Of a DNA stretch of 64,000 bases, positions 26,591-45,044 are shown piece by piece. A program made the translations under genes and the position numbers. The notes under the pieces are model-generated. The model did not search any database. It was not told the DNA's origin and worked only from the letters and a program-made list of their open reading frames with translations. The DNA is from an uncultured Clostridia bacterium. Lineage in GTDB: Bacteria > Bacillota > Clostridia > TANB77 > CAG-508. Within the stretch, counting starts at the first letter, position 1. Each line of letters begins with the position of its first letter. The stretch lies in the NCBI GenBank assembly GCA_947627495.1, contig CANQWH010000001.1, forward strand, positions 5,332 through 69,331, read 5' to 3'.

Positions 26591-26945
26591 TGGTGGAGAT
26601 GGAGGGAGTTGAACCCTCGTCCAATATTCTATTCATACAAACTTCTACGAGTGTAGTTTATTATTAAACATTCCCTTAAATTCTAGCAAATAAACACGCT
26701 TGAATTTTTGGTAGCCTTTTAATACCCATTATTCTCAAGGCAAAGAATAATTTTGTTTCCTACTTTAATCGACGCCTTATCTATACCAGTAGGCCTTATA
26801 GTAAGACGACGTTGCAACTAGGCAGCGTATGCTAATTCATTATCAGCGTTTATTTTTAATTTCGCTTTTTTATAGTGGCCAAAGCGACCATCCACTACTC
26901 GCTATCTATACTTCAAAAATACTGTCGAAACCAAAATACATCCCC
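26591..26945 (-). ncRNA. ssrA: tmRNA (SsrA). The tag reading frame ends ...A-D-N-E-L-A-Y-A-A-stop.
   Basis: The reverse complement ends GGGTTCAACTCCCTCCATCTCCACCA (T-arm plus CCA) and begins GGGGATGTATTTTGGTTTCGACAG. An internal gct gat aat gaa tta gca tac gct gcc tag encodes the tag. Confidence 0.9.
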
Positions 26946-27130: not shown

Positions 27131-27207
27131 TGGTAGCGAGAAGTGGATTCGAACCACCGACCTGTCGGGTATGAACCGAATGCTCTAGCCAACTGAGCTA
27201 TCTCGCC
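27131..27207 (-). tRNA. tRNA-Met (anticodon CAT). Elongator type is most likely, but Ile-lysidine cannot be excluded.
   Basis: Reverse complement GGCGAGATAGCTCAGTTGGCTAGAGCATTCGGTTCATACCCGACAGGTCGGTGGTTCGAATCCACTTCTCGCTACCA. It folds as a cloverleaf with anticodon loop TTCATAC. Confidence 0.85.
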
Positions 27208-39202: not shown

Positions 39203-39955
39203 ATGAGTATAATAAATTCTTATGATAATAGTGAAGAAATAGTAAAAGCAGAAATATTTACAAAGGAGCAACAAAAACTTTCTGAGAACGCGATAGTATG
39301 TTTTAAAAAAGAACTAATAGATGAAATAGAAAACATGGAAGAATTTGAAGAATATAGCAATATTGAAGTTTGTGGAGAAAAAGTAAAAATATATAAAACT
39401 AAAGTTTATGGAAAAGATGTTATTATATATAGAACTATGCTTGGTGGTCCAGCAACAGCAATGATGATGGAAGAAATTCATGCAAGGGGAGTTCAAAATT
39501 TCATATTTTTTGGTTCTTGTGGTGAACTTACTTCAGATTTAAAAAAGGGTGCATTTATTATACCAACAGCAGCCTATAGAGATGAAGGGACAAGTTATCA
39601 TTATATGCCAGCTTCAGACTTTGTAGAAGTAAAAACAGCTACAAAATTAGAAGAAATTTTTAAGAAAAATAAAATAAGTTATGAATTAACAAAAACATGG
39701 ACAACAGATGGTTTATATAAAGAAACTAAAGATAAGATGAAAAAAAGAGTACAAAGTGGTTGTAAAGTTGTAGAGATGGAGTGTGCATCAATTATGGCTG
39801 TTGCTCAAGCAAGAAACATAAATGCATATCAATTTTTATACTCAGATGATACACTTGCTGAAGCAAATTGGGATATAAGAACATTAAATGATAATAGAAG
39901 TCCACTATTAAAAGAATGTCTAAAAATCGCATTTGAAATTATTAAAGAAATATAA
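39203..39955 (+). CDS. Nucleoside phosphorylase family (PNP_UDP_1 fold) protein
   Basis: A C-terminal VVEMECASIMAVAQ motif typical of the PNP/MTAN family. Confidence 0.55.
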   Translation: MSIINSYDNSEEIVKAEIFTKEQQKLSENAIVCFKKELIDEIENMEEFEEYSNIEVCGEKVKIYKTKVYGKDVIIYRTMLGGPATAMMMEEIHARGVQNFIFFGSCGELTSDLKKGAFIIPTAAYRDEGTSYHYMPASDFVEVKTATKLEEIFKKNKISYELTKTWTTDGLYKETKDKMKKRVQSGCKVVEMECASIMAVAQARNINAYQFLYSDDTLAEANWDIRTLNDNRSPLLKECLKIAFEIIKEI

Positions 39956-39974: not shown

Positions 39975-40976
39975 ATGGAAGAATTAAAAAAAATATTTAA
40001 AGAAATAGGTTATACAGAAGAAGAAATGAATGAAATAATAAATGAATATGGAATAAGAGACTTAAAACCAGAAACTTTATTAGAAAATGTAAAAAGAAAT
40101 TATAGTTTCTTTTTATCAATAGGCTATAGCAAAGAAGATGTTATAAAAATGACAAAATCCTTGCCACAAATATATAGCTATAGTATAGACAATATGAAAC
40201 AAAAAATAGAAGATATGGAAAAATTAGGCTATAGCAAAGAAGACGTTATAAAAATGACAAAAATTTTCCCAGCAATATATAGCTTGAGTATAGACAATAT
40301 GAAACAAAAAATAGAAGATATGGAGAAATTAGGCTATAGCAAAGAAGACGTTATAAAAATGACAAAATCCTTGCCACAAATATATGGCTATAGTATAGAC
40401 AATATGAAACAAAAAATAGAAGATATGGAGAAATTAGGCTATAGCAAAGAAAACGTTATAAAAATGACAAAGACATTGCCAGCAATATATAGCTTGAGTA
40501 TAGACAATATGAAACAAAAAATAGAAGATATGGAGAAATTAGGCTATAGCAAAGAAGACGTTATAAAAATGACAAAAACTTTACCAGCAATATATAGCTA
40601 TAGTAAAGAAAATATAAAACAAAAAATAGAATTTTATGATTCAATAGGCTTACACTCATTAGCAATAATAGATGCAAAACAATTAATGCAAAGTACAAGC
40701 TTAAGTTATGCAAGATATATGTATTATAAAGATATAGGAATAGATATAGATGAAACAAATTATAAAAAGTTATTTATTAACAAAAAAATATTTGAAAAAC
40801 AGTATGGCATAACAAAAGAAGAATTATTAGCAAAATATAATTATCAGGAATACATGAGGAAGAAAAATACACAAGATTTAGGACAAGAAGTAGTAGATGT
40901 TTTGGAAAATACAGAGTATTTAGGAGATACAGAAGAAACAATAGGTGCATATGAAAAAGATGAAAAAATCAAATAA
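39975..40976 (+). CDS. mTERF-like helical repeat protein with 5 tandem 35-aa repeats and a conserved C-terminal domain
   Basis: The repeat LGYSKEDVIKMTKxLPxIYxxSIDNMKQKIEDMEK matches the mTERF motif LGFSxxxIxxIIxxxPxILxYSxExxLxPKIEFL. RBS aagggaaag is present. Confidence 0.6.
   Translation: MEELKKIFKEIGYTEEEMNEIINEYGIRDLKPETLLENVKRNYSFFLSIGYSKEDVIKMTKSLPQIYSYSIDNMKQKIEDMEKLGYSKEDVIKMTKIFPAIYSLSIDNMKQKIEDMEKLGYSKEDVIKMTKSLPQIYGYSIDNMKQKIEDMEKLGYSKENVIKMTKTLPAIYSLSIDNMKQKIEDMEKLGYSKEDVIKMTKTLPAIYSYSKENIKQKIEFYDSIGLHSLAIIDAKQLMQSTSLSYARYMYYKDIGIDIDETNYKKLFINKKIFEKQYGITKEELLAKYNYQEYMRKKNTQDLGQEVVDVLENTEYLGDTEETIGAYEKDEKIK
40122..40646 (+). repeat. Five direct tandem 105-bp repeats (coding) inside gene 39975-40976
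   Basis: ggctatagcaaagaagacgttataaaaatgacaaa recurs at 40122, 40227, 40332, 40437 and 40542. Variation is limited to 2-3 codons per unit. Confidence 0.9.
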
Positions 40977-40999
40977 AGATAAAAAATGGAGGTAAATGA

Positions 41000-41398
41000 A
41001 TGGAAGAAATATTAAAAGAAATAGGGATAAGCGAAAATACAATAAGTCAAATGGAAGAGTTATGTCCAAATATAAAAGAACTAAGCAAAGAAGAAATAGA
41101 AAAGAAGATAGAGAAACTAAAGGAAATGAAATGTGATGATATACAAGTAAGAAATATAATAAGTAGTAATGCTATATACTTAGATAGAAGCGTTACAGAT
41201 GTGGACAAGCTAATAAACACGATGAAAGACTTAGGCTTTGATAACTTAAATATACTATTAGATGGAAATCCATACATATTAAATTTAGACGACTTTGAAA
41301 TAAAAAATTACATAACAAAAAGAGAAGAAAAAGGAGAATTATTAGAAGACATAGTAGATGATATGAGTGCGAATCCATTCTTATTTGAAGAAATATAA
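41000..41398 (+). CDS. Short divergent mTERF-like protein of 132 aa (one or two degenerate repeats)
   Basis: N-terminus MEEILKEIGISEN parallels the flanking genes, and LGFDNLNILLDGNPYILNLDDFEIKNYI is motif-like. Confidence 0.5.
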   Translation: MEEILKEIGISENTISQMEELCPNIKELSKEEIEKKIEKLKEMKCDDIQVRNIISSNAIYLDRSVTDVDKLINTMKDLGFDNLNILLDGNPYILNLDDFEIKNYITKREEKGELLEDIVDDMSANPFLFEEI

Positions 41399-41419
41399 AA
41401 TAAAAGGAAAGAAAGATAT

Positions 41420-42673
41420 ATGGAAGAATTAAAAAAGATATTTAAAGAAATAGGTTATACAGAAGAAGAAATGAATGAAATAATAAATGAACATGGAATA
41501 AAAGAACTTAAACTAGAAACTTTATTAGAAAATGTAAAAAGAAATTATAGTTTCTTTTTATCAATAGGCTATAGCAAAGAAGACATTATAAAAATGACAA
41601 AGACATTGCCACAAATATATGGCTTAAGTATAGACAATATAAAACAAAAGATAGAAGATATAGAAAAATTAGGCTATAGCAAAGAAGAAGTTATAAAAAT
41701 GACAAAATCCTTGCCACAAATATATGGCTTAAGTATATACACTATAAAACAAAAGATAGAAGATATAGAAAAATTAGGCTATAGCAAAGAAGATGTTATA
41801 AAAATGACAAAAAACTCTCCAACAATATATGGCTTAAGTATAGACAATATAAAACAAAAAATAGAAGATATGGAAAAATTAGGTTATAGCAAAGAAGACG
41901 TTATAAAAATGACAAAGACTTTGCCAAAAATATATAGCTATAGTATAGACAATATAAAACAAAAAATAGAAGATATGGAAAAATTAGGCTATAGAAAAGA
42001 AGACGTTATAAAAATGACAAAGACATTGCCAGCAATGTATAACTATAGTATAGACAATATAAAACAAAAAATAGAGGATATGGAGAAATTAGGTTATAGC
42101 CAAGAAGAAGTTATAAAAATGACAAAGACATTGCCAGCAATATATTGCTTAAGTATAGACAATATGAAGCAAAAAATAGAAGATATGGAAAAATTAGGCT
42201 ATAATAGAGAAGAAGTTATAAAAATGACAAAGACATTGCCACAAATATATAGCTATAGTATAGACAATATAAAACAAAAAATAGAATTTTATGATTCAAT
42301 AGGTTTACACTCATTAGCAATAATAGATGCAAAACAATTAATGCAAAGTACAAACTTAAGTTATGCAAGATATATGTATTATAAAGACATAGGAATAAAT
42401 ATAGACGAAACAAATTATAGAAAATTATTTATAGGACAAAAAAAATTTAAACAACAGTATGGAATAACAAAAGAAGAATTATTAGCAAAATATGATTATC
42501 AGGAATACATGAGGAAGAAAAATACACAAGATTTAGGAAAAGAAGTAGTAGATGTTTTGGAAAATACAGAGTATTTAGGAGATACAGAAGAAACAATATG
42601 TGCACACGAAAAAAATGAAAAATCAGTTAGAGAAGATGAAACACGTCAAAGTTCAGAAAACCAAAGTAAGTAG
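41420..42673 (+). CDS. mTERF-like helical repeat protein with 7-8 tandem 35-aa repeats, a paralogue of 39975-40976
   Basis: The same N- and C-terminal domains, with a longer repeat array. Confidence 0.6.
   Translation: MEELKKIFKEIGYTEEEMNEIINEHGIKELKLETLLENVKRNYSFFLSIGYSKEDIIKMTKTLPQIYGLSIDNIKQKIEDIEKLGYSKEEVIKMTKSLPQIYGLSIYTIKQKIEDIEKLGYSKEDVIKMTKNSPTIYGLSIDNIKQKIEDMEKLGYSKEDVIKMTKTLPKIYSYSIDNIKQKIEDMEKLGYRKEDVIKMTKTLPAMYNYSIDNIKQKIEDMEKLGYSQEEVIKMTKTLPAIYCLSIDNMKQKIEDMEKLGYNREEVIKMTKTLPQIYSYSIDNIKQKIEFYDSIGLHSLAIIDAKQLMQSTNLSYARYMYYKDIGINIDETNYRKLFIGQKKFKQQYGITKEELLAKYDYQEYMRKKNTQDLGKEVVDVLENTEYLGDTEETICAHEKNEKSVREDETRQSSENQSK
41567..42301 (+). repeat. Seven direct tandem 105-bp repeats (coding) inside gene 41420-42673
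   Basis: ggctatagcaaagaag repeats at 105-bp periodicity from 41567. Confidence 0.9.
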
Positions 42674-42705
42674 TGGCACTTATAATTTGAATTGGAGGTA
42701 AAACA

Positions 42706-43149
42706 ATGGTAAATACCGAATATGCTAATGCATATAGTGAAGTTATTGAAATACTAAAATACATTTCAATAGAAGAATATAATAAAATTCCTAAAAGTAA
42801 AATTAGGTCATTTGAAGCCAATGCAAATAAAGAATATAAGTTTAAATATAATCCTAATTTAACATTAGATGAACAGGGTGTATCAAAAAGAGCAAAGGCA
42901 ATTATAGCTATCCTATTTAGGGATTATTGGGCTACACCTATTCAAAGAGAAAAAATTATAGCAAAACAAAATTATGATAGAATGCAAATAGAAAAAGAAA
43001 AACAAGAAAAATATAGTAATGATAATATATTTAAAAACAAAGAATTAAATACAAAAACAATAGAAACAAATAATAATTCAATGATAAAATATAAACAAAG
43101 TTTTTTTAGCAAGATATTAAAAAATATAAAACAAATATTTAGTAAATAA
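42706..43149 (+). CDS. Hypothetical 147-aa protein
   Basis: The ORF has RBS tggaggt, and its C-terminal half is K/N-rich. Confidence 0.45.
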   Translation: MVNTEYANAYSEVIEILKYISIEEYNKIPKSKIRSFEANANKEYKFKYNPNLTLDEQGVSKRAKAIIAILFRDYWATPIQREKIIAKQNYDRMQIEKEKQEKYSNDNIFKNKELNTKTIETNNNSMIKYKQSFFSKILKNIKQIFSK

Positions 43150-43224
43150 TATAGAAAAAATGATGAAAGATATGTAACAAAAATATATTTTTCATCATTT
43201 TTTTGTGCCATTTGGGACTTAAGA

Positions 43225-43248
43225 ATATCAATACATCCATTGATATTA
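43225..43248. promoter_or_regulatory. Perfect 9-bp inverted repeat AATATCAAT-acatcc-ATTGATATT, a candidate operator upstream of the acyl-CoA ligase/birA-like/fab cluster
   Basis: The palindrome lies 84 bp upstream of the start codon at 43332. Confidence 0.35.
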
Positions 43249-43331
43249 CATTAAACTGACCGTTCATTCTAATGACTTTTAAGAAAAATGAGTATAAAAT
43301 ATTATAGAAGAAAGGATAAAGGGGATTGTGA

Positions 43332-45044
43332 ATGCAGGAACCAATATATGAATGCTTAAAAATAACAGATTTAAAGGATATGCTAAATAAAACGAAAGAA
43401 CTATATAAAAATAATATTGCATATAAAATAAAAATTGAAAAAGATAAATATTATACGATTACACATTTAGAAGCCAGAAATATGGTAGAAAGTTTAGGAA
43501 CAGCTCTAATAGAAATGGGACTAAAAGGAAAAAGAATCGCAGTAATTGGAGAAAATAGATATGAGTGGCAGATAGCATATTTATCAATAGTATGTGGAAC
43601 AGGTATAGTTGTTCCACTAGATAAATCCTTACCAGAAAATGAGTTAATGAACTTAATAGAACGTTCAGAAGTAGAAGCAATATTTTATTCATCAAAATAT
43701 GAAGAGACTCTAAAAAGATGTGTTTTAGAAGGTGTAGGAAATTTAAAGCATCTAATATCAATGGACTTAAAAGAACACAAAGAAGGTATATATTCAGAAA
43801 TAGAATTAATAGAAAAGGGAAAAAAATTATTAGCAAATGGAAATAAGAAATTTTTAGATGCAAAAATAAACCCAGAGGAAATGAGTATAATGTTATTTAC
43901 ATCTGGCACAACAGCAGCATCAAAAGTTGTAGCACTATCACATAAAAATATTTGTTCTAATTTGATGAGTATTGCTTCAATACTTGATGTTTCAGAAAAA
44001 GATGTAATGCTTTCATTTTTGCCATTGCACCATGTGTTTGAATGTACTGTGGGCTTTTTAATGGCTTTATATAAAGGAATGGAAGTAACTTTTTGTGATG
44101 GAATAAAGCATATTGTAGAAAATATGAATGAATATAAAATAACGTATATGGCGTGTGTTCCAGCAATTTATGAAAATATATATAAAAATATTTTAAAGAA
44201 ATTGCAAAAGGAAGGAAGACTAGAAGAAACTAAGCAAAAAATAATAGATACAAAAGATTATAGTATGGAAGAAAAGAAAAAAGTATTTCAAGAGATACAT
44301 AATATGCTTGGTGGAAATGTAAGGCTTTTAATTAGTGGAGCAGCAGCATTAAATGGTAAAGTAGAAGAAGGTTACAGAGATTTAGGTATAAATTTAGTAC
44401 AAGGTTATGGATTAACAGAAACCTCGCCAGTAATAGGAATGGGAAACAATAGGTATCATAAGATAGGCTCAATTGGAAAAGCAGTACCAAATGTTGAAGC
44501 AAAAGTAGAAGATGTAAATGAAGAGGGAATAGGAGAGTTAGTAGTAAAAGGTCCAAATATAATGATAGGGTATTATGGAGATAAAAAAGCAACAAATGCT
44601 GTATTAAAAGATGATTGGTTCTACACAGGAGATTTGGCAAAAATAGATGAAGAAGGTTACATATTTATCTGTGGTAGAAAGAAAAGTGTAATAGTTTTAA
44701 AAAATGGAAAAAACATTTTTCCAGAAGAATTAGAGGGAATAATAAACAGAGTTGAAGGGGTAAAAGAAAGTTTTGTATTTGAAAAAAGAAATACAGAAGA
44801 TGTAAATGATATAAAGATTTATGCAAAGATTGTGTATGATAGGAAAATAGTAGAAGAAGTTTACAAAACAAATAACGATACAGAAATATATAATTCAATA
44901 AATAACCAAGTAAAAGCAATAAACAAAAGCTTGCCACCATATAAAGTAATTCGTGGAATTATATTAACAGAAGAACCTTTAATAAAAACAACAACCTCTA
45001 AAATAAAAAGACAAGAGGAGTTAAAAACAATAACATGGAATTAG
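43332..45044 (+). CDS. Long-chain fatty acid--CoA ligase (AMP-dependent synthetase/ligase family)
   Basis: AMP-binding motif LFTSGTTAASKVV and a total length of 570 aa. Confidence 0.8.
   Translation: MQEPIYECLKITDLKDMLNKTKELYKNNIAYKIKIEKDKYYTITHLEARNMVESLGTALIEMGLKGKRIAVIGENRYEWQIAYLSIVCGTGIVVPLDKSLPENELMNLIERSEVEAIFYSSKYEETLKRCVLEGVGNLKHLISMDLKEHKEGIYSEIELIEKGKKLLANGNKKFLDAKINPEEMSIMLFTSGTTAASKVVALSHKNICSNLMSIASILDVSEKDVMLSFLPLHHVFECTVGFLMALYKGMEVTFCDGIKHIVENMNEYKITYMACVPAIYENIYKNILKKLQKEGRLEETKQKIIDTKDYSMEEKKKVFQEIHNMLGGNVRLLISGAAALNGKVEEGYRDLGINLVQGYGLTETSPVIGMGNNRYHKIGSIGKAVPNVEAKVEDVNEEGIGELVVKGPNIMIGYYGDKKATNAVLKDDWFYTGDLAKIDEEGYIFICGRKKSVIVLKNGKNIFPEELEGIINRVEGVKESFVFEKRNTEDVNDIKIYAKIVYDRKIVEEVYKTNNDTEIYNSINNQVKAINKSLPPYKVIRGIILTEEPLIKTTTSKIKRQEELKTITWN

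Follow-up and report, generated by a model that had tools for sequence, protein, structure and literature searches.

Tandem-repeat mTERF-fold proteins with variable residues at putative DNA-contact positions in an uncultured Clostridia bacterium

Proteins of the mTERF family have long been regarded as organelle-specific factors of eukaryotes. Here we describe a compact cluster of mTERF-fold genes on the chromosome of an uncultured Clostridia bacterium (assembly GCA_947627495.1, contig CANQWH010000001.1, positions 5,332 to 69,331; this whole stretch of 64,000 nucleotides is referred to below as the window). The cluster holds two long paralogues, A and C, each carrying an array of 35-residue units encoded by 105-bp direct repeats, together with a short acidic gene, B, lying between them, and a downstream gene for a basic protein of 147 amino acids (aa) (Table 1). 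Amino acid differences among the units are concentrated at five positions, four of which appear to align with functionally relevant residues of human MTERF1, and the arrays differ between relatives whose adjoining genes are nearly identical. We regard it as reasonably likely that A and C bind double-stranded DNA in a sequence-specific manner, tuned by unit positions 14, 15, 17, 20 and 21.

Family, fold and repeat anatomy

A preliminary description of this DNA, made from the letters and a list of open reading frames (ORFs), had proposed three plus-strand genes in tandem and likened their repeats to the mTERF motif. All three ORFs were found where it placed them, and the family assignment holds well, since the Pfam mTERF model (PF02536, gathering score 23.1) scores 191.9 bits in C, 117.4 bits in A and 30.7 bits in B. 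A phmmer search of the PDB sequences with C matched human MTERF1, MTERF3 and MTERF4, and a profile built from 35 family members reached MTERF1 with E = 5.6e-14 and MTERF3 with E = 3.2e-12. The top phmmer match of C in the PDB was the left-handed designed toroid dTor_6x35L (4yxx, E = 4.8e-9), which was set aside, as it reflects a likeness between 35-residue repeats and is no evidence of homology. Tetratricopeptide (TPR), pentatricopeptide (PPR) and Sel1 models are absent among the best 25 of the 33 Pfam matches with E ≤ 1 for A, the best 25 of 30 for C and all of those for B, and membership in these families was rejected. Pfam matches of A and C to UBA, WIYLD, RuvA_C and the like were taken as noise amplified by the repeats, nearly all of them having zero qualifying stretches and the rest being weak single-stretch matches below or near the cut-offs.

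The AlphaFold2 (AF2) model of C has a mean predicted local distance difference test score (pLDDT) of 89 and a predicted template modelling score (pTM) of 0.69, and resembles the MTERF1 solenoid. In the model, every unit has three helices, spanning its positions 5-14, 16-20 and 23-34. About two degenerate motifs more come from the C-terminal domain, and confidence is low in the tail (residues 370-417). The three-helix motif of about 35 residues with a conserved proline capping the central helix is present, Pro16 of the unit aligning with the MTERF1 prolines. Searching the PDB with this model by Foldseek, the top eight matches are human MTERF1-DNA complexes (E = 1.1e-8 to 6.3e-8, target-normalised TM-score 0.53-0.63), followed by MTERF3 (3m66), MTERF4 in mitoribosome assembly intermediates (7o9k, 4fp9) and the Tetrahymena mitoribosomal protein mS93. 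The root-mean-square deviation to the MTERF1 complexes, 6-8 Å, indicates that the predicted superhelix differs from MTERF1 in pitch. Transcription activator-like effector (TALE) structures (BurrH, dHax3) were matched only with E = 3e-4 to 4e-2 and a TM-score of at most 0.3; given these weak matches, the three-helix units and the Pfam result, membership among the TALEs was also rejected. The classical distribution of mTERF proteins, which are nuclear-encoded, organellar and eukaryotic, is not what is seen here, the genes lying on a bacterial chromosome with a transfer-messenger RNA (tmRNA), FabD and BirA; this difference concerns distribution and not structure. We consider it practically certain that A, B and C are mTERF-fold proteins.

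Both long proteins have the same architecture, namely a degenerate N-terminal unit of 38 residues (IGYTEEEMNEI...), the array of 35-aa units (five in A, seven in C), a C-terminal capping domain of about 74 residues (IGLHSLAIID...LSYARYMYYK...KYDYQEYMRKK) and an acidic tail. As expected from the preliminary description, the regions flanking the arrays are common to A and C, with nucleotide identities of 95.1% (N-terminal) and 94.5% (C-terminal), by which the two genes appear to be recent or homogenised paralogues. Tandem Repeats Finder (TRF) places one array of period 105 at 40120-40631, with 4.9 copies and 90% matches, and another at 41565-42286, with 6.9 copies and 89% matches. The five units counted earlier in A stand, and the seven to eight of C become seven in register.

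The units are less uniform at the DNA level than was first thought. Their pairwise identity, put at 95% or more in the preliminary description, ranges from 79 to 96% with a mean of 87%, and silent positions, said to be identical, vary at six codons (2, 13, 27, 29, 31 and 34), the synonymous divergence (pS) outside the hypervariable codons being 0.146. What does survive is the concentration of the amino acid variation at few positions: codons 14, 15, 17, 20 and 21 hold 49% of the pairwise amino-acid differences in 16% of the codons. They do not form the contiguous block of residues 13-17 once proposed, since K13 and P16 are invariant across the window units, and residues 1, 4, 5, 7, 8, 18, 23-26 and 33 vary as well. 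Replacement changes are accordingly concentrated, with a nonsynonymous divergence (pN) of 0.362 at the five codons versus 0.047 at the others, and a pN/pS of 1.17 versus 0.32, the latter figure indicating that the codons outside the variable set are under purifying selection. The same positions, 14, 15, 17, 20 and 21, again show the highest within-protein entropy in 473 units from the 120 homologues listed, in which G2, Y3, P16 and K29 are near-invariant and Pro16 is found in 95% of the units.

Variable positions and array turnover

Concerning the possible role of the variable positions, the unit profile was aligned with MTERF1, whose numbering was calibrated on point mutants in the PDB (3mvb R162A/F243A/Y288A, 5crk F243A and 5crj F322A). 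In this alignment R162 falls on unit position 14, R202, F243 and R350 on position 17, F322 on position 20, R169 on position 21, R251 and Y288 on position 25, and the conserved S-loop proline on P16. Both F243 and Y288 stack on everted bases. According to the parts of the MTERF1 study consulted (PMC4705650), R162, R202, R251, R350 and R387 read bases directly and the prolines' C-alpha atoms follow the major groove; no statement of a role for F322 or R169 was found in those parts. By the profile alignment, four of the five hypervariable positions appear to coincide with MTERF1 residues that contact DNA or have been substituted in MTERF1-DNA structures, MTERF1 being the one family member with a solved DNA complex. 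By homology to MTERF1, a role of the variable residues in setting specificity gains support.

We also asked how the variable residues combine across the family, using 1,182 units from 281 distinct proteins. The pairs GY, GL, SY and SL together make up 69% at positions 20-21, whereas positions 14 and 17 take 143 combinations, and the mutual information between variable positions is higher than in every shuffle. This pattern fits co-adapted contact patches and not a compact two-residue code of the TALE type. The earlier comparison of these residues with the specificity-determining positions of TALE or PPR repeats gains support from their alignment with MTERF1 contact residues.

The arrays change rapidly between relatives, in a comparison where all sequences come from short-read assemblies. 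L001, a metagenome-assembled genome (MAG) from rabbit gut, is syntenic with the window, with nucleotide identities of 96.2% in the acyl-CoA ligase gene, 92.7% in the BirA gene, 97.7% in B, 98.9% in the 147-aa gene and 95.1% in both the N-terminal and the C-terminal regions of C; its C orthologue has 10 units, versus 7 in the window, with another series of variable residues. Similarly, L004 matches the window at 98-99% identity in B, in the phosphorylase gene and in the N-terminal region next to the array of A, but at only 85% in that five-unit array; gene B is 97.7-99.2% identical between the window and these two relatives. One 90%-identity protein cluster (P0031) has members of 240, 275, 310, 345 and 380 aa, with two to six units between identical termini, some of them on contigs of several hundred kb. 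Finally, the contig L082 (ENA ERZ27249265, NODE_15323, 2.8x coverage) is 100% identical to window positions 40930-43765 save for a clean deletion of 210 bp (two units) in gene C with a 29-bp ambiguous junction, and represents either a repeat-number polymorphism within the strain or a low-coverage mis-join. The labile repeat number suggested earlier is thus what is observed, and the sequences support a gain and loss of units driven by recombination.

Repeats are prone to mis-assembly, and a clean two-unit deletion on a contig of 2.8x coverage is what such errors might look like. To the idea that the repeats of A and C are themselves an assembly artefact, or part of a decaying pseudogene region, we nevertheless give next to no credence: the reading frames are intact, with ribosome-binding sites and gaps of 19-32 bp between genes, the architecture is shared by 69 independent loci and 228 proteins of the database (see below), the non-variable codons show purifying selection and the structure prediction is confident.

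Distribution and associated genes

The protein search gave 228 homologues with E ≤ 1e-3, nearly all from ENA or Logan metagenome assemblies, and none of the 228 bears a functional name. A scan of one genome each for 185,579 species yielded 69 loci, in agreement with the rarity in bacteria proposed at the outset, and all 69 come from bacterial MAGs, with gut samples from rabbit, human (Hadza), goat, chicken and rumen. Their labels include Clostridia, Bacilli, Mycoplasmatota and Erysipelotrichaceae, as well as Clostridium sp. CAG:433 and CAG:524. Six loci carry labels outside Bacillota, namely L030, L059 and L060 (Muribaculaceae), L003 (Nanosyncoccus), and L047 and L065 (Paratractidigestivibacter); these are probably due to bin contamination or mislabelling, horizontal transfer being the alternative. 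Unit numbers in the family range from 2 to 10, with one protein of 15.

The window's flanking genes are common only to the two closest relatives, L001 and L004, so that the cluster itself, and not its neighbourhood, is the conserved unit. To survey its composition, all ORFs of the 69 loci were searched by phmmer with the genes of the window. Between one and five long repeat ORFs occur per locus, and 32 of the 69 loci have at least two, some of which are possibly fragments. A homologue of B is present in 53 of the 69 loci, mostly directly 3' of the long gene or genes, the commonest orders being long-B (17 loci), long-B-long (8) and three long genes followed by B (5). The 52 B sequences of 110-150 aa, the window copy included, are all acidic, with a median net charge of -12.5 (range -23 to -7). 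Aligned with the long-protein profile by hhalign, B matches over about three motifs (probability 92%, E = 6e-7), and it holds some three to four degenerate mTERF motifs instead of near-identical units. It is therefore not the same kind of repeat gene as A and C, as had been claimed, and its retention does not suit an incidental divergent copy; judged by its sequence and distribution, B appears to be a conserved acidic mini-mTERF partner. Any role of B as a capping partner, or as a DNA mimic that regulates the long proteins, is speculative.

Table 1. Features of the mTERF gene cluster; positions are those of the window.
Feature	Position	Strand	Details and basis
Nucleoside-phosphorylase-family gene	39203-39955	+	19 bp 5' of A; PF01048, 97.2 bits
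Gene A, long mTERF-fold tandem-repeat protein	39975-40976	+	333 aa; ORF, PF02536
Array A, 5 x 105-bp in-frame direct repeats	40119-40643	+	TRF and unit table
Acidic C-terminal tail motif of A (NTQDLGQEVVDVLENTEYLGDTEE)	40866-40937	+	translation
Gene B, acidic mini-mTERF protein	41000-41398	+	132 aa, isoelectric point (pI) 4.3, net charge -16
Gene C, long mTERF-fold tandem-repeat protein, architecture as A	41420-42673	+	417 aa; ORF, PF02536, AF2
Array C, 7 x 105-bp in-frame direct repeats	41564-42298	+	TRF and unit table
Acidic C-terminal tail motif of C (NTQDLGKEVVDVLENTEYLGDTEE)	42521-42592	+	translation; low-confidence model region
Gene for 147-aa basic protein, candidate associated gene	42706-43149	+	pI 9.6; 32 bp 3' of C

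The intergenic gaps in the cluster, of 19-32 bp, contain purine-rich ribosome-binding sites, and are hence compatible with a single transcription unit running from the phosphorylase gene through A, B and C to the 147-aa ORF. The phosphorylase gene, probably co-transcribed with A, is syntenic in L004 only among the loci, L001 being cut before that position. In the ORF list, A begins further upstream at a TTG (39933, giving 347 aa), within the end of the phosphorylase gene; we prefer the ATG at 39975, since its upstream and ribosome-binding-site context and the MEELKK N-terminus agree with the paralogue C. The promoter and terminator scan of this DNA of about 25% GC returned 38 sites versus 34 expected. 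Rfam models have no match in or near the cluster; elsewhere in the window they match a tmRNA (26591-26945, minus strand) and a tRNA (27134-27207, minus strand), the window having a strong plus-strand gene bias and GC-skew bias. It should be noted that the 182-bp intergenic stretch 43150-43331, which separates the 147-aa gene from the acyl-CoA ligase gene, is identical to L001 at 182 of 182 positions, the coding DNA on its flanks being 96-99% identical; it has no Rfam match and may be a conserved regulatory element or small RNA.

Some MAGs with a Bacilli label carry an mTERF repeat protein with an N-terminal fusion to a cytidylate kinase domain (PF02224) (P0058/P0151, 588 aa; L024:6344-8110), P0151 occurring on 10 contigs of which the longest measures 296 kb. 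Taken with the phosphorylase gene upstream of A, this fusion could point to a recurring link with nucleotide salvage.

The 147-aa protein has no match in Pfam, NCBIfam, PADLOC or PHROG; its family search gave 2,458 hits. AF2 models its N-terminal domain with pLDDT >90, and a fold search with the model found no match. The gene is present at 14 of the 69 mTERF loci. At least 12 of these 14 encode long proteins with the tail, e.g. NTQDLGKEVVDVLENTEYLGDTEE, 11 being detected by a regular expression and one (L013) by eye, since spacing variants of the tail escape the expression; the remaining two have long acidic tails of different sequence. With 40 loci having neither tail nor 147-aa gene, the association gives a Fisher p = 1.8e-5, a value confounded by clade. 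Among 916 control ORFs, a strict expression for the motif matched 19, every one of them a long mTERF protein.

Beyond the mTERF family, the 147-aa gene has homologues 11-24 bp 3' of five unrelated, unannotated proteins (317, 291, 299, 354 and 580 aa). All five carry the same motif at their C-terminal end, of the shape (Q/N)(D/E)LG.E....(E/D)T.Y(I/L)D.T, the match being loosest in the 580-aa protein (L071:4035-5444, L080:3106-4444, L083:2590-3956, L085:1734-3950 and L087:2425-3941). L075 is an exception, having no tailed upstream protein but a motif-like stretch within the downstream protein of 677 aa. Such loci are often near genes for relaxase, Mob, Rep, RhuM, diversity-generating retroelement (DGR) or HEPN/NTase proteins. 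The tail seems to be a portable peptide with a functional tie to the 147-aa family. Two proteins of these neighbourhoods, at L080:3106-3981 and L075:5495-7528, have in common an 'NSYFHFT' motif region without Pfam or PADLOC match, which may be an undescribed domain recurring beside homologues of the 147-aa gene.

The pairing of the tail and the 147-aa gene with unrelated proteins, amid many mobile-element and defence genes, would suit a different function, in which the solenoid is a scaffold for protein recognition, for example as sensor or effector of a conflict system, and its hypervariable patch binds fast-evolving protein ligands. Fast array turnover, expanded paralogues and the mildly acidic character of the proteins are in line with it. 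We hold this to be quite unlikely, as homology to a DNA-binding family and the mapping of the residues favour nucleic acid, the window locus sits among housekeeping genes (acyl-CoA ligase, BirA, FabD), as does the distant locus L070, and no credible PADLOC or PHROG match was obtained: PADLOC gave only an AbiTi match with zero qualifying stretches, and the PHROG matches are short and compositional. Nor did tblastn of C match any of 50,697 phage or 72,556 plasmid records. On the same searches a defence or phage origin of the family was rejected as unsupported.

Predicted DNA binding and relation to known systems

A literature search on bacterial mTERF proteins found the tandem-repeat protein screen of Hu et al. 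2024 (Nucleic Acids Res 52:10464; PMC11417379) and no other study. In the parts of the article consulted, which also underlie the comparisons made here, the name pTERF (prokaryotic mTERF-like protein) is given to a family with 3-11 units, whose few dozen homologues stem from MAGs without exception, mostly of Bacillota. pTERF1 (MBQ3414883.1, TR_35_C32_2), from a ruminant-gut Clostridia MAG, is reported there to bind ACTNNNAGTC with a Kd of 1.87 nM, as studied by SELEX, electrophoretic mobility shift assay (EMSA), biolayer interferometry (BLI) and activation of green fluorescent protein (GFP), and pTERF2 selects another motif, from which the authors propose 'potential reprogrammability'; different DNA motifs there accompany different repeat arrangements (PMC11417379).

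A and C resemble these proteins in origin from a Bacillota MAG, near-identical repeats placed head to tail with a period of 35, the mTERF annotation, three-helix units and unit numbers (five and seven), and their 69 relatives include ruminant MAGs of the RGIG series, the collection from which pTERF1 came. The likeness has one departure: the canonical proline and heptad features, 'not observed in pTERF1' (PMC11417379), are conserved in A and C. A and C very likely belong to the pTERF class, a judgement made on the published description and not on sequence, every feature that could be compared for class membership having been found. Whether the 459-aa protein of L007 (RGIG2387) is a close relative of pTERF1 is a guess only. 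The portions consulted contained no mention of tandem paralogues, an acidic partner such as B, array turnover between near-identical genomes, an alignment of variable positions with MTERF1, or the link between tail and 147-aa gene.

The mechanism that we favour would be as follows. In low-GC gut Bacillota, a chromosomal, operon-like cluster would supply the paralogous solenoids A and C together with B and the 147-aa protein. Each long protein would wind as an MTERF1-like superhelix along the major groove of double-stranded DNA, with the invariant Pro16 of every unit coming closest to the DNA and residues 14, 15, 17, 20 and 21 around it touching bases and setting the sequence preference. Recombination between the 105-bp units would add, remove and reshuffle units, leading to different specificities among paralogues and strains, and the cellular role would probably be that of site-specific regulators or transcription roadblocks. 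What was observed, and what the proposal builds on, is the anatomy of the repeats, their family and fold, the variability at specific positions, the fast turnover of the arrays and the linkage of the genes; DNA binding as such is carried over from the pTERF1 and pTERF2 data, as published in the parts consulted (PMC11417379), and from homology to MTERF1.

The nucleic acid could instead be RNA, the long proteins acting in rRNA or ribosome biogenesis or in RNA processing, like MTERF3, MTERF4 and plant mTERF4/9/15. The model of C and the family profile do match MTERF3, MTERF4 in mitoribosome assembly intermediates, and mS93, and Gene Ontology terms of RNA metabolic processes are among the predicted pTERF targets in the portions consulted (PMC11417379). 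The best structure and sequence matches are, however, to DNA-bound MTERF1, pTERF1 and pTERF2 are described there as binding double-stranded DNA with nanomolar affinity, and a conserved rRNA target is hard to square with arrays that change beside neighbours 96-99% identical and with one to five paralogues per locus. We therefore think an RNA target unlikely.

Several observations weigh against the favoured mechanism. Positions 14, 17, 20 and 21 jointly take 435 four-residue combinations in the 1,182 units. A and C are mildly acidic, with pI values of 5.35 and 5.70 and a net charge of +2 in the repeat region, and arginine is rare at the variable positions, unlike in MTERF1, the residues being mostly small or polar. 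A pN/pS of about 1.2 could reflect relaxed constraint just as well as diversifying selection, and the inverted repeat ACT/AGT in the published pTERF1 motif hints, by analogy, at dimeric half-sites and not at one repeat per base. Some of the repeat-number variants could moreover be assembly collapses, an explanation that does not extend to the substitutions at variable positions.

The ratio near neutrality, the very many residue combinations without a compact code and the scarcity of arginine would all be compatible with arrays that bind DNA without real sequence specificity, as nucleoid-associated or architectural proteins whose variable positions merely tolerate substitution. This seems improbable to us, since the variable positions are not scattered and coincide with the base-readout positions of MTERF1, their mutual information exceeds that of every shuffle, and pTERF1 and pTERF2, according to the portions of the study consulted, select distinct motifs (PMC11417379).

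Read as sequence-specific DNA binders, A and C can be set beside other solenoids. With MTERF1 (PDB 3MVA, 3N6S, 5CRK) they have in common the Pfam family, the fold and the proline-capped motif. The eight motifs of MTERF1 are degenerate and differ from one another; it is a basic organellar protein, encoded in the nucleus, that uses arginines to read guanines and flips bases. In A and C the tandem units are near-identical, arginine is rare at the corresponding positions, and the proteins are mildly acidic, bacterial and cytoplasmic, with no presequence. MTERF3 and MTERF4 likewise share fold and family with A and C, and are single-copy, conserved and non-repetitive with conserved rRNA targets, in contrast to arrays of the A and C type, which diversify fast; MTERF4 works in complex with its partner NSUN4, a loose analogy to a long protein with B. 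TALE and TALE-like proteins (dHax3, BurrH/Bat, STAR) resemble A and C in tandem units of about 33-35 residues, near-identical DNA repeats with few variable residues, a labile repeat number and a superhelical reading of the DNA groove, the last being a prediction for A and C. They differ in having a two-helix repeat with a repeat-variable diresidue (RVD) loop at residues 12-13, as opposed to three helices and no such two-residue loop, and a small recurrent code, of which the A and C family has none; for A and C no secretion signal or host-targeting context is evident.

A broader view, to which we assign a rather low probability, is that the cluster is an instance of a larger undescribed modular system of uncultured gut Bacillota, consisting of fast-diversifying, programmable DNA readers in multiple paralogues, B, and the tail/147-aa module, with a role in genetic conflict or in the control of mobile elements, to which the mobile-element and defence-type surroundings of that module would point. 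In such a system B would perhaps be a DNA mimic or capping regulator, and the tail would perhaps plug one clade into the 147-aa module.

The bacterial mTERF relatives described so far come from a single screen (Hu et al. 2024), and with the class already published the present locus is a richer example and no first discovery. What it adds are leads on operon structure, partner genes, array dynamics and a likely specificity patch. The 69 loci and some 1,200 natural repeat units provide a specificity hypothesis, centred on positions 14, 17, 20 and 21 around the invariant proline, and a natural allelic series whose members differ only in unit number and variable residues. Together, the series and the hypothesis would make a designable recognition code of mTERF-type repeats directly testable. 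The conserved acidic B, and the tail's link to the 147-aa gene, further suggest that these putative DNA binders act in a multi-protein system, not mentioned in the parts of the published description consulted; if true, this would bear on their biology and on any engineering use.

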